A stretch of 64,000 nucleotides of DNA from a virus, in the IMG/VR virus record IMGVR_UViG_3300027759_003534, positions 118,567 to 182,566 of that record; one strand, given 5' to 3'. A program made the translations under genes and the position numbers. Below, one piece after another: positions 39,376-44,515 of this stretch (the first letter of the stretch is position 1; each line of letters starts with the position of its first letter). Below the pieces are notes generated by a model. The model worked only from the letters and a program-made list of their open reading frames with translations, made no database searches and had not been told where the DNA came from.

Positions 39376-39543
39376 TTACCGTCCACGGCCAGCACTACGA
39401 GTTGGCGGTTTCTTGGCTGGCCCAGCTGAGGGTTTAACTTTGGCTTTTTTCTCTACAACAGAATTAACATCGCTACTGTCTGGGTGAGTTCGACCTTGTT
39501 TCTTTGCTAATGCTTTGGCAATTGTGTCAGAAAGTTTTGACAT
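39376..39543 (-). CDS. 55-aa basic protein (MSKLSDTIAKALAKK...GRGR)
   Basis: Below track cutoff; AAGGAA SD; Lys/Arg-rich. Confidence 0.65.
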   Translation of the reverse strand: MSKLSDTIAKALAKKQGRTHPDSSDVNSVVEKKAKVKPSAGPAKKPPTRSAGRGR

Positions 39544-39575
39544 TTCGTGTTCCTTTTTCTTTGTGTCTAGTCTTG

Positions 39576-39779
39576 CTACTCTGCTACAACCTCTTTTTCG
39601 ACGAATCCTGGGCGAGCTTTTAGTACTGCAATTCTGCGTTGAATTTTTGGTGCAGTCTTTTTACGAGCATTGACCAGCAACTTTTCTAACTGGGTTACAT
39701 TCAGCGGCCCTAAGCGTTCCCGACCATTCTTGGTACGCATTGGATCTGATTTGCGAGCTTTTTGTCCTGTCTTTGCCAT
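39576..39779 (-). CDS. 67-aa basic protein
   Basis: SD AAGGAA; TATAAGTA box upstream. Confidence 0.7.
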   Translation of the reverse strand: MAKTGQKARKSDPMRTKNGRERLGPLNVTQLEKLLVNARKKTAPKIQRRIAVLKARPGFVEKEVVAE

Positions 39780-39858
39780 GTTGTTTCCTTGTGTTATATT
39801 TTACTTATAACTGGAATAGCTGGCAATTAAAATTCTGGTGGGCCCTGAAGGTGTTTTG

Positions 39859-39932
39859 TGGACCCCTCCGGACTCGAACCGGAATAGTACAAATTATGAG
39901 TTTGCGGCAATAACCAATTATGCTAGAGGTCC
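39859..39932 (-). tRNA. tRNA with CAT anticodon, probably Ile2 (lysidine) type; CCA not encoded
   Basis: GGACCTC/GGGGTCC acceptor with C4-G69, C5-G68; loop CT-CAT-AA; T-arm TCCGG-TTCGAGT-CCGGA. Confidence 0.8.
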
Positions 39933-39958
39933 ACAAAACATCCTTGCCCTACAAAACT

Positions 39959-40048
39959 TGGCGGAAGCGGTCCGATTCGAACGGACGGAGGATTTAACTC
40001 CTCGGCAGGTTAGTAATCTGCTGGTTTCGGCCACTCACCCACGCTTCC
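39959..40048 (-). tRNA. tRNA-Ser with ACT anticodon (type II)
   Basis: GGAAGCG/CGCTTCC-G-CCA, long variable arm, anticodon loop TT-ACT-AA, A31.C39 mismatch. Confidence 0.8.
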
Positions 40049-40056
40049 GTACAACT

Positions 40057-40132
40057 TGGCGCTCCCGACCGGATTCGAACCGGTGTACTTGCCGTGAAAG
40101 GGCAATGTCCTAGGCCTCTAGACGACGGGAGC
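40057..40132 (-). tRNA. tRNA-Glu(TTC)
   Basis: GCTCCCG/CGGGAGC-G-CCA, TTGCC-CT-TTC-AC-GGCAA, ACCGG-TTCGAAT-CCGGT. Confidence 0.95.
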
Positions 40133-40139
40133 CTGTACT

Positions 40140-40301
40140 TTACCTCATGAATTGTTGTTGCTTAATGGCCTTGTTGATAGCTTTGATGCGTTGGTTGGCG
40201 TCCATGATACTACGGCTAGCCGATTCGCGTTTTTCACTCTTGGTCCACTGTCCTGCAAGGGTACGGCCTAATTCACTTGATGTTTGTTGTGGCTTTGCCA
40301 T
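40140..40301 (-). CDS. 53-aa basic hypothetical protein (MAKPQQTSSELGR...)
   Basis: Below track cutoff; begins immediately after rpoZ-like stop. Confidence 0.6.
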   Translation of the reverse strand: MAKPQQTSSELGRTLAGQWTKSEKRESASRSIMDANQRIKAINKAIKQQQFMR

Positions 40302-40302
40302 G

Positions 40303-40530
40303 CTATTTTACCTTTGCTAAGTAATCAACTAAATTGACCTGCCCTGCTTGGATTTCATGCAGTGCATCTACGCAGGTCACATAACGGTTGGTGTCTTCAC
40401 GGTGAACACGTTTGAGTTCACGCAGTCGTTGTGCGCCAATTAGGACCATGTCATAACGTCCGCCGCCAGCTTGACGTACACACTGTTCCATATCAATCGC
40501 TGGGCCACGACTTGCAATTCTTGCTTTCAT
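40303..40530 (-). CDS. rpoZ: RNA polymerase omega subunit homologue
   Basis: RYDMVLIGAQRLREL and VDALHEIQAGQV match RpoZ RFxLVLxAAxRARQL and xALxEIxxG motifs; AGGAGA SD. Confidence 0.75.
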   Translation of the reverse strand: MKARIASRGPAIDMEQCVRQAGGGRYDMVLIGAQRLRELKRVHREDTNRYVTCVDALHEIQAGQVNLVDYLAKVK

Positions 40531-40553
40531 GATATCTCCTGTTGTAAAAGTGT

Positions 40554-40582
40554 ATTATATATTAAATTGATGGCAATGTCAA
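40554..40582 (-). promoter_or_regulatory. Consensus sigma70 promoter TTGACA-N17-TATAAT for rpoZ-like gene
   Basis: -35 at 40577-40582, -10 at 40554-40559. Confidence 0.9.
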
Positions 40583-40631
40583 TATGAGTATGCTCATTTG
40601 ATCTTGTTAAAATTGAACAACGGCACGTTGA

Positions 40632-41255
40632 TTATACCGGCTCTTTATTTGTTATATTTAAATATTCTTGATATAGTTCTTCCCAATTTAAAATTATGTT
40701 TTTAAAAAAATAAGGACTTTTTTGATGTACCTTCCCAACTCGCAATTCATTGTATTCTAAGCCCAATTCGTCAGCAAGAAATTTTGCCCCTTGATCTATT
40801 AGATCTTCGTAGTAAATTGTTACAACTTTTTTATAAACAGATAAATTAACTTTATGGTCCCAACTACGCTTTGATTTTAGTAAATTAATAAATTTTAATT
40901 TGTCAATGACAGTTGGCTCTACAACTTTGCTACTATAATCTTTACCGCTCCATTCATTGACTATGTTGGCTACAATAACACTCATTAATTGAGCAAATAC
41001 ATCTTTCCTGAGACTTATTATTAAAGTTACAGTTGCTGGATCTAAATCTTTGATTAAATTAATGTCATGCAGATGTATTACTACATTTTGATCTTTAATA
41101 TGTTGCCGACATTCTTTTTCATTCATCGGAAGCCATAGCCCGTACGCATCAGCTAATCCTCCTTTATTAAACGGAGTACCTGCTAACATCTCTAGTATAA
41201 TATGACTTCCGGTTCTTCCTGGAGAAAAAATAGTATAGACACTGTTCATGCCCAT
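40632..41255 (-). CDS. Sulfotransferase-like (Stf0-like) protein
   Basis: FSPGRTGSH, SLRKDVFAQLMS, IYYED; very AT-rich; TATAAATA at 41255-41262. Confidence 0.55.
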   Translation of the reverse strand: MGMNSVYTIFSPGRTGSHIILEMLAGTPFNKGGLADAYGLWLPMNEKECRQHIKDQNVVIHLHDINLIKDLDPATVTLIISLRKDVFAQLMSVIVANIVNEWSGKDYSSKVVEPTVIDKLKFINLLKSKRSWDHKVNLSVYKKVVTIYYEDLIDQGAKFLADELGLEYNELRVGKVHQKSPYFFKNIILNWEELYQEYLNITNKEPV

Positions 41256-41325
41256 ATTTATAGATCAATTCCGCTTGTCTCAATGTTTCCATTCGTTATA
41301 AAAATTTGTGTGTTGACCGTTAGCA

Positions 41326-41402
41326 TGGTACCCTGGGGAGGATTCGGACCTCCACATTCCGATTTCTTGGACCGGTGACTTTACCTGTTTGTCTACCAGG
41401 GC
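41326..41402 (-). tRNA. Atypical tRNA, AAG anticodon (Leu-like), short variable loop
   Basis: GCCCTGG/CCAGGGT-A-CCA; anticodon arm CCGGT-CC-AAG-AA-ATCGG (C33); T loop TCCGAAT. Confidence 0.65.
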
Positions 41403-41408
41403 TAATTT

Positions 41409-42020
41409 TTACATTGTTACTTGTGTGGTACCATTACCGTTTTGAAAACCTATTACACCACCTTCTGCTTCGATCCGTTTAATTACATCTTCGAACAGTA
41501 TTGGAGCAAAATCAGTTTGCTCAACACAAACACAGTGGTAGCGCACATCGTTCTCATCACTGTAAAGAAGTTCTCCGGTCTTGACGTTTACTCCACGAAT
41601 TTTCTTTACGCGATTTGCGTGAGTATGTCCGTGAATATTGACTCCAAAACGTCCTAAGCTTTCTGGGTGAACCGGAATGTGACTAAGTATCATTCCGTTC
41701 ATAACATGGTATCCACGTAGACTTCTAAAGTAAGGAGTGTAGTCCTCGTCTTTAAAGATATCATGGTTGCCACGTATAAGAACTTTGTCACCGTTGAGCC
41801 TGTTCAAGATAGGCAAAGCCCGGCGGTTGATAACCACATCACCCAAGTGATACACTTTGTCATTAGGGCGAACACGGTTGTTCCACGCTTCGACCATAAA
41901 CTCGTCCATTTCTTCCGGAGTGTCAAATGGACGCAACTTGGTTACACCATCATTACGGGTGAAGTGGCACACACCTTTGTGACCAAAGTGAGTATCGCTT
42001 ACTAAAAATACACTAGGCAT
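41409..42020 (-). CDS. Calcineurin-like metallophosphoesterase
   Basis: SDTHFGH, HLGDV, RGNHD, SHIP, HGHTH; AGGAGG SD before ATG 42020. Confidence 0.92.
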   Translation of the reverse strand: MPSVFLVSDTHFGHKGVCHFTRNDGVTKLRPFDTPEEMDEFMVEAWNNRVRPNDKVYHLGDVVINRRALPILNRLNGDKVLIRGNHDIFKDEDYTPYFRSLRGYHVMNGMILSHIPVHPESLGRFGVNIHGHTHANRVKKIRGVNVKTGELLYSDENDVRYHCVCVEQTDFAPILFEDVIKRIEAEGGVIGFQNGNGTTQVTM

Positions 42021-42042
42021 ATGTGCCTCCTTTCTTTGTGAT

Positions 42043-42116
42043 TGGCGCCGGTCTAAGGAATCGAACCTCAATTAACGGTTTTGGAGACCGCTGTAATGCC
42101 ATTATACCAGACCGAC
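42043..42116 (-). tRNA. tRNA-Trp(CCA)
   Basis: GTCGGTC/GACCGGC-G-CCA, GCGGT-CT-CCA-AA-ACCGT. Confidence 0.93.
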
Positions 42117-42117
42117 C

Positions 42118-42195
42118 TGGAGGTGAAGGTTGGATTCGAACCAACGATTGTAGAGATTTGCAGTCACTTGCCTTGGACCACTCGGCCACTTCACC
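42118..42195 (-). tRNA. tRNA-Cys(GCA)
   Basis: GGTGAAG/CTTCACC-T-CCA (U73), CT-GCA-AA loop; 1 nt from tRNA-Trp. Confidence 0.93.
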
Positions 42196-42203
42196 ATAAT
42201 ACA

Positions 42204-42377
42204 TTAATCTTTAACTTTAAAATATAGCGGACTTTGGTCACGAGCCTGAATCATGTCTGCAGCCCTACGAATCTTATCTTGAAACAGTTTGGTCTTGAGT
42301 TCTTCACTCAGTGTTAAATTACTAAATTCCCAAGCCTGTCTCACAATACGATCGTTTAATTTTGTAAAATCTGTCAT
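42204..42377 (-). CDS. 57-aa hypothetical protein (MTDFTKLND...)
   Basis: ATG 42377 with GGAAAGGA SD just after the terminator. Confidence 0.65.
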   Translation of the reverse strand: MTDFTKLNDRIVRQAWEFSNLTLSEELKTKLFQDKIRRAADMIQARDQSPLYFKVKD

Positions 42378-42392
42378 GTTATCCTTTCCTCT

Positions 42393-42428
42393 AAATAAAA
42401 AACCCCGGAGTGTTAAGTCCAGGGTTCT
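42393..42428 (-). terminator. Intrinsic terminator (probable attenuator)
   Basis: AACCCTGGA-CTTAACAC-TCCGGGGTT + TTTTATTT. Confidence 0.85.
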
Positions 42429-42450
42429 TAAATACGATTTAAAACTTATT

Positions 42451-42555
42451 CTATTCAGAACCCCTTGCACCATCTTCGCAGACCACTGGCCACAGATTGG
42501 ATTGCCCAATAATGAGTAGGGTTGACAAAGAAAGATGCAAGTTATTATTCATCAT
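42451..42555 (-). CDS. 34-aa leader peptide MMNNNLHLSLSTLLIIGQSNLWPVVCEDGARGSE
   Basis: ATG 7 nt after -10 box; last codons contain GGGGTTCT complementary to the terminator 5' arm. Confidence 0.65.
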   Translation of the reverse strand: MMNNNLHLSLSTLLIIGQSNLWPVVCEDGARGSE

Positions 42556-42562
42556 AGCAAGT

Positions 42563-42591
42563 ATTATACAAGGGTATTTATACTTTGTCAA
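42563..42591 (-). promoter_or_regulatory. Dual promoter: TTGACA-N17-TATAAT with TATAAATA late box inside the spacer
   Basis: -35 42586-42591, -10 42563-42568, TATAAATA 42575-42582. Confidence 0.88.
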
Positions 42592-42614
42592 CCAGTATAG
42601 TACATAAATATTCC

Positions 42615-43640
42615 ATGCTTAAACTCCACGAAATTACTCGACTTCAAATTGAACTTACTACTCGTTGTAACTCTCGATGCCCCATGTGCATGCGTAATTA
42701 TCGGGGGCTTGAGTACAATAGCGGATATCCAATAACTGAGTTGTCTTTAGAAGATATTAAAAAAATATTGAAACCAGATTTTTTAAAGCAAATCGACCAT
42801 GTGTTGTTTAATGGTAATTTGGGAGATTTTGGACTGGCCAAAGACGGAATTGAGATTGTTCGGTACCTAGTTGATAATAACTGTAATGTTAATATTTACA
42901 CCAATGGTAGCATGAGAACTCCAGATTGGTGGGCACGGTTAGCACTGCCAGGAGTCAAAGTGGGATTTGCATTGGATGGCTTAGCAGACACGCACTCTCT
43001 CTATCGTCAGGATACGGATTGGAATACGGTAATTAAAAATGCTACAGCATTTATTGCCGCCGGCGGCACTGCAATTTGGAGATTTATTCCATTTACCCAT
43101 AATCAACATCAAGAAAAAGAGTGTAGAGAATTGGCCAAAGAATTAGGATTTAAATATTTTGATAACATTAGTGATGGAAGAAACAATGGACCAGTTTATA
43201 GTCGTACTGGGGATTTTAGTCATTGGCTTGGTGAACCATGGCCCAACACTGCTATAGAGCCTGATATTATCTCCATGATACAAAGTCATATCACTTGGTT
43301 TGATGCAAAAACATTTAAATCATCAAAAGACATCACTCCACTGAATATTGGGTGTAATCATAAACGAAATCAAGAATTATATATTGCTGCAAATGGAGAA
43401 ATATATCCATGTTGTTATCTTGGCTATTATCCAAAGACCATGCACCACGCAGGCAATGAACAATTAAAACTTTTAGTGCAAGGAAATAATGCCTTGGAAT
43501 CGTCATTGGAAGATTGTATTAAATGGTTTGATAGTGTTGAACACACATGGGATATGCCAAGCATTGCAGAAGGCAGATTGTATACTTGTGTAAATACTTG
43601 CGGATCGTGGAAACCTCCTGTAAACAAACAAACACTATGA
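42615..43640 (+). CDS. Radical SAM protein with C-terminal SPASM/twitch domain
   Basis: CNSRCPMC; IYPCCY...CVNTC; ATG 4 nt after CATAAATA. Confidence 0.88.
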   Translation: MLKLHEITRLQIELTTRCNSRCPMCMRNYRGLEYNSGYPITELSLEDIKKILKPDFLKQIDHVLFNGNLGDFGLAKDGIEIVRYLVDNNCNVNIYTNGSMRTPDWWARLALPGVKVGFALDGLADTHSLYRQDTDWNTVIKNATAFIAAGGTAIWRFIPFTHNQHQEKECRELAKELGFKYFDNISDGRNNGPVYSRTGDFSHWLGEPWPNTAIEPDIISMIQSHITWFDAKTFKSSKDITPLNIGCNHKRNQELYIAANGEIYPCCYLGYYPKTMHHAGNEQLKLLVQGNNALESSLEDCIKWFDSVEHTWDMPSIAEGRLYTCVNTCGSWKPPVNKQTL

Positions 43641-44515
43641 CACAACGAATAATCATTAATAAACTAGAATTTTATATCACAAATGTATGTAATTTAACCT
43701 GCTCCGGTTGCAATAGATACAATAATTATAAATTTGCTGGATGGGAAAAATGGGAAGATTACGAACCAATTTTTAAAAAGTGGGCGGAAAAAATTGATAT
43801 TATTAAGCCAGTGGTTCTTGGCGGAGAACCACTACTCAATCCTTCAATCACTAAATGGATTGAAGGAATACGTCTCTTGTGGCCAGATCACTATGCACCA
43901 CAAATACAATCAAACGGTACCAGGATTGATTTAGTTCCAGGATTGTACGACTCGTGCAAGGCAATCGGGGCTTGGATAGGAATTAGTTTACATTCGCTTG
44001 ATGATCGAGATGCAATTTTTACTCGTATTAGAAATTATCTGGTGCATCCTATAAAAGAAACTAACGATTTAAATTCACCCATTGGGTCTACATTTCAATT
44101 TATTGATGCTAATAGAGTTGAAGTTCATGTATGGATTAGTGATCACTTTAATCAAAGCAACATTATAGAAGGTCCTAACGGTGAATTTAAATTATATAAT
44201 AGTGATCCATTAAAAGCACACAGCAATTGTGGGTTTGTACAGTGGAAAAATTATCATTTCATTGATGGAAAAATTCATAAATGTGGACCGGCACCGTTAA
44301 TGCAACAGTTTGATCAACAGTATCCATTTGATGTATCGGATGAAGACAGAGCACTGATACATAGTTATCGTGGGTTGAGTATAGATGAATTTGATGAACG
44401 CGGTGAAGAATTTTTCCGTACACTAGATGACCCTATTCCGCAATGTAAATTTTGCCCCGAGTCATACGAATACAAAAAAATACAATTTTCAAATCTAAAA
44501 CCTAACAAGGTTTAA
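43637..44515 (+). CDS. Radical SAM protein
   Basis: CNLTCSGC, LGGEPLL, HKCG..CKFCP; ATGA overlap. Confidence 0.88.
   Translation: MTQRIIINKLEFYITNVCNLTCSGCNRYNNYKFAGWEKWEDYEPIFKKWAEKIDIIKPVVLGGEPLLNPSITKWIEGIRLLWPDHYAPQIQSNGTRIDLVPGLYDSCKAIGAWIGISLHSLDDRDAIFTRIRNYLVHPIKETNDLNSPIGSTFQFIDANRVEVHVWISDHFNQSNIIEGPNGEFKLYNSDPLKAHSNCGFVQWKNYHFIDGKIHKCGPAPLMQQFDQQYPFDVSDEDRALIHSYRGLSIDEFDERGEEFFRTLDDPIPQCKFCPESYEYKKIQFSNLKPNKV

Follow-up and report, generated by a model that had tools for sequence, protein, structure and literature searches.

The window that we analyzed is the final 64 kb (64,000 nucleotides) of a 182.6-kb record from an uncultured virus (IMG/VR record IMGVR_UViG_3300027759_003534); because a record of this length was judged to be just 49% complete, the virus should be a giant phage. 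On the minus strand of the window, a promoter, a 34-codon open reading frame (ORF), and an intrinsic terminator lie in front of a group of transfer RNA (tRNA) genes. We argue that this element is probably a ribosome-mediated (leader-peptide) transcription attenuator that controls the phage's tRNA operon. As judged from the sequence, it has the three structural hallmarks of leader-peptide attenuators: a short ORF early in the transcript, an intrinsic terminator between this ORF and the genes, and an antiterminator that excludes the terminator and is covered by a ribosome at the end of the leader. The original prediction for this stretch had proposed such an attenuator. The promoter with its 17-nucleotide (nt) spacer, the leader ORF, the terminator with its U tract, and the order of the downstream genes are all present on the minus strand where the prediction had put them. 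Relatives support the idea as well: they conserve the ORF and its place at the 5' end of the transcript, the terminator, and the pairing of the end of the ORF with the terminator arm, the last of these with compensatory changes. Homologs might have lacked the ORF or the complementarity, and about 70 diverged homologs keep both.

We propose that the switch would work as follows. Host RNA polymerase would initiate at a strong sigma-70 promoter, and the transcript would start at or beside the AUG of the leader. The last four sense codons of the leader and the first two bases of its stop codon would form the 5' strand of a 13-bp antiterminator, for which the lower half of the 5' arm of the terminator would serve as the 3' strand. 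When a ribosome sits at the end of the leader while the terminator is being synthesized, it would cover the antiterminator strand, the terminator would form, and transcription would stop about 160 nt from the start. If the ribosome is absent, lagging, or stalled upstream, then the antiterminator would form first, and the polymerase would read through into the gene for a 57-amino-acid protein, tRNA-Cys, tRNA-Trp, a phosphoesterase gene, and tRNA-Leu. The latest stall sites that would permit read-through are the conserved Trp and Cys codons. In this account we infer four things: translation of the leader, the dependence of termination on that translation, which way the response goes, and what is being sensed, which could be any slowing of decoding or, more narrowly, a shortage of tRNA-Trp or tRNA-Cys. 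Most likely, the phage tRNAs would be made only when ribosomes run slowly.

We collected relatives of the element from viral contigs and metagenomes, using as queries the 57-amino-acid protein, two conserved DNA words, and a neighboring radical-SAM protein. This recovered about 90 related loci, all of them from lake samples (viromes or metagenomes), on contigs of up to 337 kb and more. After deduplication there were 72 distinct upstream regions, of which 69 were non-identical and could be fully parsed. The counts that follow use 67, 69, or 70 members, depending on the feature, and 32 loci had enough flanking sequence to count the tRNA species. Among cultured phages, we found no near DNA match to the locus and no homolog of the 57-amino-acid protein. 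Nearly all of the relatives keep the same order: promoter, ATG, ORF, an AU-rich spacer of 22-32 nt (22 nt in the window, from the leader's stop codon to the terminator), terminator, ribosome-binding site, the gene for the 57-amino-acid protein, and tRNA genes on the same strand. Most of the loci were found with the 57-amino-acid query, so the presence of that gene is partly by construction. Among the loci that were found via the radical-SAM gene, seven have the full attenuator, and the 57-amino-acid gene is behind each of these. Another locus found in this way, L114, has the 57-amino-acid gene about 950 nt away, and its promoter would be outside of the stretch that was searched. A third kind of locus from the radical-SAM search, L125, is a natural deletion variant: the same promoter as in the other members lies directly before the 57-amino-acid gene, without the ORF or the terminator. 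In L125 (reverse strand of 1-1500), the untranslated leader is 34 nt, and just a remnant of the end of the ORF is left.

Going by the covariation of the terminator and the antiterminator, the switch is real. In the window, the 8 nt at 42464-42457 are complementary to 42428-42421 in the 5' arm of the terminator. Because 42428-42421 is common to both hairpins, the two hairpins exclude each other. The original prediction had described this complementarity and the mutually exclusive hairpins, and the relatives conserve both, with covariation. The prediction was right that there is an antiterminator, and it made the helix too short. When the RNA of the window is truncated after the 5' arm and folded, the 13 nt at 42464-42452 pair with 42434-42430 and 42428-42421 (-12.7 kcal/mol), which makes a helix of 13 bp that extends through the last sense codon and two bases into the stop codon. 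The duplex between the end of the ORF and the arm has a predicted energy of -12.8 kcal/mol, versus -6.5 +/- 1.9 in dinucleotide shuffles, and was equaled by 1 of 200 shuffles. The stability of the terminator is -15.7 to -16.4 kcal/mol.

The same pairing recurs in the relatives. The mean energy of the duplex between the end of the ORF and the 5' arm is -13.4 kcal/mol (n = 67), whereas the values are -7.4 in dinucleotide shuffles and -8.0 at the best site elsewhere in the ORF, and in 50 of the 67 members, five or fewer of 200 shuffles equal it. If the cognate arm is replaced by the arms of other classes, the mean rises to -10.0 kcal/mol; in 58 of 67 cases the cognate arm gives the better energy. 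These energies come from diverse sequences, as the 67 members have 51 distinct pairs of antiterminator strands. Also, if the RNA is truncated after the 5' arm, at least five bases of the arm pair with the end of the ORF in 66 of 67 members. In the alignment of the terminators, 99.4% of the cells are paired, two pairs have compensatory changes, and none of 500 shuffles reach the score; RNAalifold predicts the same terminator stem in both of the large alignments. For the antiterminator of the largest lineage, 92.8% of the cells are paired, versus 25-48% if the partner is slid, and again 0 of 500 shuffles reach the score.

Particular substitutions tell the same story. In the largest lineage, terminator arms CCCUG/CGGGG go with CAGGG in the ORF, and arms CCUCG/CGAGG go with CGAGG. 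This three-way covariation (the end of the ORF, the 5' arm, and the 3' arm) also alters an amino acid, from Gln to Arg. In this lineage, two antiterminator pairs change on both sides (AU in 12 members and GC in 6 at one pair; GC in 15 and AU in 5 at the other). Two members of the window's own lineage have Arg instead of Glu at the last codon along with a change beside the arm, and their helix is longer. The antiterminator helix is bipartite. Its outer part is formed with the arm, and in its inner part the final sense codon and the beginning of the stop codon pair with a short motif immediately 5' of the arm. In the relatives, the distance from the end of the antiterminator to the stop codon is 0-8 nt. 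A ribosome that occupies the last codons or the stop codon would therefore have to unwind the antiterminator, which would free the arm.

The small ORF is, by its pattern of substitutions, a conserved coding reading frame. Frame 1 is open in all 69 relatives, and there are stop codons in frame 2 of all 69 and in frame 3 of 65. The leaders are 32, 33, 34, 43-49, 53, or 57 codons long, so there are only in-frame insertions and deletions, despite the great divergence in sequence between lineages. In the two largest lineages, the ratio of nonsynonymous to synonymous substitution rates (dN/dS) is 0.38 and 0.56 with the pairing region left out. Residues that are conserved show synonymous variation in their codons (for example, both of the Cys codons). 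In 67 of 70 members, 6-10 nt separate the -10 box from the ATG, which predicts an mRNA with little or no untranslated leader, and in the window the transcript is predicted to begin at or beside the AUG. In the three lineages whose ATG is 21-53 nt past the -10 box, a purine-rich stretch that resembles a Shine-Dalgarno sequence precedes the ATG. Leaders of this kind have 43-51 codons and are found at L077:2281-2494, L078:1122-1332, L081:683-893, and in L055 upstream of 2501. L055 also has an extra mini-ORF of 5 codons at the start of its transcript. The longest leader frame, of 57 codons, is in L095 (upstream of 2345) and runs through the terminator region, probably because of a 1-nt insertion or deletion near the usual stop codon; the switch may have decayed here, or the sequence may contain an error. 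We considered that the leader might be a type I toxin and rejected this, as the leaders of the largest lineage are not hydrophobic.

The position of the element at the head of a tRNA operon, which the original prediction had emphasized, is conserved: within 3.5 kb downstream of the elements, all 276 of the tRNA genes that we detected are on the same strand as the element. In the window, the gap of 8 nt between the 57-amino-acid gene and tRNA-Cys leaves no room for a separate promoter for tRNA-Cys and tRNA-Trp, and we found no further consensus promoter on the minus strand between the switch and 40582. Transcription of the downstream genes must therefore cross the terminator. The complete promoter pattern occurs once in the window, versus 0.00 occurrences expected. 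Furthermore, the 182-kb record contains one attenuator element only, and every tRNA gene of the record is downstream of it. Upstream of the element, several relatives have the terminator of another gene or a transfer-messenger RNA (tmRNA) gene, so the module is insulated on that side.

As for what the leader might sense, Trp and Cys are present in all 67 leaders, and some lineages have two Trp. The original prediction had singled out Trp22 and Cys26, just upstream of the switch, and both are there. Counting upstream from the first base that pairs in the antiterminator, the last Cys is mostly at 13-16 nt and the last Trp mostly at 22-28 nt. A ribosome reaches about this far beyond its A site, so the Trp and Cys codons would be the last stall positions that leave the antiterminator free. 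The prediction had also drawn attention to five different Leu codons. These are present in the window's leader, and they are not conserved in the relatives and carry no signal. Among the tRNA genes downstream of the 32 loci, the commonest species are tRNA-Trp (28 loci) and tRNA-Cys (27), followed by tRNA-Gly (24) and tRNA-Glu (23), and tRNA-Trp and tRNA-Cys are each within the first three tRNAs in 18 loci. Overall, the codons of the leader appear to mirror the tRNA genes in part: 42% of the leader's residues have a cognate tRNA gene downstream, compared to 26% for the 57-amino-acid protein and 54% for the eight residues that start at Trp.

These data fit the sensing of the supply of tRNA-Trp and tRNA-Cys. 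Nevertheless, we rate a general sensor of translation speed, in which the Trp and Cys codons would be the last effective stall sites, above a strict sensor of Trp and Cys. A fuller version of the idea, which we offer tentatively and would not bet on, is that the leader gauges charged tRNA-Trp and tRNA-Cys via the invariant Trp and Cys (and probably also via the Gly, Glu, and Asp codons that follow). Under this scenario, a drop in host tRNAs (from their degradation during infection, from anticodon nucleases, or from starvation) would automatically switch on the phage's own replacement tRNAs, and the recovery of decoding would switch them off again. The supply of tRNA would then be under closed-loop feedback, run from a leaderless mini-gene.

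Several observations weigh against a ribosome-mediated attenuator or against its sensing of particular tRNAs. The leader lacks a run of control codons like those in trpL or hisL, as there is a single Trp and a single Cys. Just 42% of the leader residues have a cognate tRNA gene downstream, and the excess over permuted sets of tRNAs is small (0.417 versus 0.393; 0.3% of permutations reach the observed value, and the loci are related and so are not independent). Four relatives (L025, L047, L050, and L053) pair weakly at the end of the ORF, and in two of these four the fold uses the Cys-Gly codons instead. Neither the folds nor RNAalifold on both alignments turned up a conserved anti-antiterminator or a conserved pause hairpin; the only structures predicted inside the ORF across relatives are small invariant hairpins. 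(A large hairpin inside the window's ORF was a candidate for a 1:2 hairpin, and we rejected it, as only its apical 5 bp recur, and these are invariant.) If there is no conserved anti-antiterminator, then the default without translation should be read-through, unlike in trp. The moderate purifying selection (dN/dS of 0.4-0.6) and the conserved residues at the C terminus could indicate that the peptide has a function of its own, although part of the conservation at the C terminus is due to the RNA pairing. That the phage's host translates leaderless mRNA efficiently is an assumption. Finally, the conservation of the 8-11-nt terminator loop and of the motif ATAAATA in the promoter is not explained by our model.

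The last two features bring up another way to control the operon. A protein of the phage or the host, or a processive antiterminator like Q of phage lambda, might decide whether the polymerase reads through, and the small ORF would be an unrelated microprotein or incidental. We think that this is unlikely, but the layout does have a precedent: a promoter and a strong terminator that delimit a short transcript (about 160 nt) ahead of the genes resemble lambda's PR'-tR' region, where the strong constitutive promoter yields a short terminated transcript (6S RNA), the regulated genes lie behind it, and there is a motif in the promoter's spacer. Here, all 70 relatives have a spacer of 17 nt, and in 69 of them it contains ATAAATA, at the position of lambda's Q-binding element. 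Our search pattern for the promoter fixed both hexamers and left this motif free, and ATAAATA is absent from the other six consensus promoters of the window. The original prediction had described the motif as a late box, TATAAATA. We reject this label, as the T that would precede ATAAATA is found in just 34 of 70 relatives and the window contains about as many copies of TATAAATA as expected (7 versus 5.6). ATAAATA remains an unexplained spacer motif, which could be a regulator's binding site or part of an overlapping second promoter. The terminator loop (42410-42417 in the window) also suits control by a factor, as its sequence is conserved while the stems covary. The loop is 8-11 nt long in lineages with covarying stems (consensus ACUAAACAC), with 4-nt loops in two small lineages only, and it may be a factor's binding site. 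Also, the first regulated gene encodes a conserved helical protein of 57 amino acids, which might feed back on the switch.

On the other hand, a processive antiterminator does not need an RNA antiterminator, yet a covarying one is present and coincides precisely with the ORF's last codons and stop codon. In lambda, Q modifies RNA polymerase and there is no leader ORF or RNA antiterminator; our element has a conserved ORF and a covarying antiterminator. The Q families PF03589, PF06530, and PF06323 have no match in the 182-kb record, which is weak evidence given that the record is 49% complete and that the PF06323 model matched 0 of 14 control genomes. There is no conserved pause element that resembles a -10 box within the first 20 transcribed nt. 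And the deletion variant L125 retains ATAAATA even though the switch is absent, which implies that the motif belongs to the promoter.

The nascent leader peptide could itself be the sensor, as in tnaC or SpeFL, with the RNA fold set by arrest in response to a small molecule or to stress. The purifying selection on the leader (dN/dS of 0.38-0.56) is consistent with this, and so are the conserved motifs at the C terminus and the invariance of Trp and Cys across lineages that have otherwise diverged beyond recognition. One Ser is encoded from both families of Ser codons in different lineages. Nevertheless, much of the conservation at the C terminus is due to RNA pairing, with changes in the amino acids that track changes in the terminator arm. 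The leader peptide does not resemble the known arrest peptides in any library, and it has no match in Pfam, PHROGs, or NCBIfam. Furthermore, a ribosome arrested on or close to the stop codon would hide the antiterminator, so arrest there could only raise termination. We doubt that the peptide, rather than the ribosome's progress, sets the switch.

Even less probable, in our view, is that the ORF is an independent gene for a small protein with a leaky terminator behind it and no regulatory role. One version of this idea is that the ORF encodes the precursor of a ribosomally synthesized and post-translationally modified peptide (RiPP), which would be the substrate of a divergently transcribed radical-SAM/SPASM enzyme. 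The gene for such an enzyme begins about 60 nt upstream, on the opposite strand, in the window and in 18 related loci that span several lineages of leaders. Cys and Trp are typical targets of the radical-SAM enzymes that modify peptides, and precursor genes often have partial terminators behind them. The linkage is not obligate, and we set this idea aside: 71 of 80 loci with a homolog of the radical-SAM gene have neither the leader nor the 57-amino-acid gene within 1.5 kb, and about two thirds of the loci with the element have other upstream neighbors. The enzyme is below the threshold of every peptide-maturase family, and the families that it does match are generic. Its iron-sulfur motif starts at residue 18, which leaves no space for a peptide-recognition domain at the N terminus. 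Also, a RiPP precursor leaves the covarying pairing between the end of the ORF and the arm unexplained.

We give similarly little credence to the terminated transcript of about 160 nt being a trans-acting small RNA, with read-through as a side effect: the promoter and the terminator are strong, the leader RNA of the window is structured (z = -3.9 versus shuffles), and trans-acting small RNAs that derive from attenuators are known (for example, rnTrpL; PMC6614838), but the genes downstream lack a separate promoter and so need read-through for their expression, the switch is the only conserved RNA structure, and a small RNA would not need to keep an open frame. Such a function could accompany attenuation instead of replacing it. 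More generally, either a nascent-peptide sensor or a trans-acting small RNA could coexist with attenuation.

The proposed attenuator is most like those of the trp class (trpL, hisL, leuL, pheL, thrL, and ilvL). In both, a short ORF near the promoter is followed by an intrinsic terminator, and the antiterminator shares a strand with the terminator and is next to or over the end of the ORF. In both, a completed leader favors termination and a stall upstream favors read-through, although for the phage element we infer this. The terminator is more stable than the antiterminator in both cases as well; in the E. coli trp operon, hairpins 2:3 and 3:4 rank in the same order as the window's antiterminator and terminator. 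There are also clear differences. The trp-class attenuators control genes for amino acid biosynthesis, whereas this one would control phage tRNA genes, the 57-amino-acid protein, and a phosphoesterase. Their leaders are preceded by Shine-Dalgarno sequences, whereas ours is leaderless or nearly so, with a single conserved Trp and a single conserved Cys rather than a run of control codons. We found no conserved 1:2 hairpin (for pausing or anti-antitermination), and the default without translation would be read-through. The phage element also matches no leader family in Rfam: in a scan of 39500-43000, only tRNAs reached the threshold, and no leader, T-box, or riboswitch family appeared even at E <= 1.

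The closest parallel for the leaderless arrangement is in Deinococcus deserti, for which leaderless leader peptides were predicted upstream of genes for aminoacyl-tRNA synthetases and amino acid metabolism, based on the mapping of transcription starts (PMC4007540). Those peptides also start at the 5' end of the transcript, and their targets include the translation apparatus, such as cysS with a Cys-containing leader (PMC4007540). The targets in D. deserti are bacterial genes that encode proteins (PMC4007540), whereas the targets here are phage tRNA genes, and our evidence is comparative and comes from covariation between sequences. T-box riboswitches are alike in that tRNA charging controls termination (which is our conjecture for the phage element) and in that they regulate genes of the translation apparatus. 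However, a T-box binds uncharged tRNA directly via its specifier loop and does not require translation, whereas this element has a conserved ORF and no T-box match.

Phage tRNA genes are usually discussed as fixed cargo that matches codon usage or that allows escape from defenses that cleave tRNAs. In full-text searches of the literature, we found no account of the attenuation of tRNA genes or of phage tRNA arrays. So the control logic is known for amino acid genes, and in the literature that we searched there is no published case for tRNA genes. If we are correct, then phages regulate their tRNA supply on demand, with the ribosome as the sensor, and leader-peptide attenuation, which is the textbook mechanism for amino acid operons, extends to RNA genes and to viruses. 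The element would also be a compact natural sensor of translation speed, of about 200 nt, that can be tested directly with reporters. The approximately 70 natural variants, which include compensatory stems, leaders with Shine-Dalgarno-like sequences, and one deletion, are a ready-made mutational series. The coordinates of the locus are given in Table 1.

Table 1. Features of the putative attenuator and of the genes behind it, in coordinates of the window.
Feature	Position	Strand	Details
Consensus sigma-70 promoter	42563..42591	minus	-35 box 42591-42586, 17-nt spacer, -10 box 42568-42563
ATAAATA motif inside promoter spacer	42581-42575	minus	
Leader ORF, 34 codons + TAG	42451..42555	minus	ATG 42555-42553, 7 nt past -10 box; TAG 42453-42451
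Trp22 to Cys26, candidate control codons	42478..42492	minus	Trp22 42492-42490, Cys26 42480-42478; directly upstream of switch
Putative antiterminator, 5' strand	42452..42464	minus	codons 31-34 + first two bases of stop codon
Putative antiterminator, 3' strand	42421..42434	minus	42428-42421 doubles as lower part of terminator 5' arm
Intrinsic terminator	42393..42428	minus	stem 42428-42418/42409-42399 (11 bp), 8-nt loop 42417-42410, U tract to 42393
Ribosome-binding site + 57-amino-acid gene	42204..42391	minus	first gene behind switch; ORF 42377-42204
tRNA-Cys(GCA)	42195-42118	minus	begins 8 nt past 57-amino-acid gene
tRNA-Trp(CCA)	42116-42043	minus	
Metallophosphoesterase gene	42020-41409	minus	Pfam and PHROG matches
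tRNA-Leu(AAG)	41402-41326	minus	

The 57-amino-acid gene is the first gene behind the switch in all of the related loci except L054, and its product has about 10 invariant residues. It has no match in Pfam, PHROGs, NCBIfam, a profile search of the PDB, or the ESM Atlas, and these searches suggested no function for it or for the leader peptide. An AlphaFold model of the protein is a two-helix hairpin (predicted local distance difference test score, or pLDDT, of 72). On the other side of the attenuator, and divergent from it, are two adjacent radical-SAM genes (42615-44515 on the plus strand of the window), of which the first has a SPASM domain. Homologs of the radical-SAM genes, at 55-71% identity, are present in many virus contigs of 200-365 kb, mostly without an attenuator nearby.

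We also noticed some unusual tRNAs and tmRNAs around these elements. Two tRNAs in the window, Ser(ACU) at 39959-40048 and Leu(AAG) at 41326-41402, have A at position 34, and such tRNAs are at the same positions in L003, L004, L056, L059, L072, and others. Because they recur at the same positions in many relatives, these are conserved genes and not miscalls. Other odd tRNA calls are Phe(AAA) in L067, Ala(GGC) in L072, and Ile(UAU) in L107. Many relatives (L001, L002, L021, L023, L067, L070, L086, L088, and L091) have permuted two-piece tmRNA genes 0.1-2 kb upstream of the attenuator. Some of the tags that these tmRNAs encode are ordinary and end in ALAA, and others have 29 residues and end in FAV or LAV.

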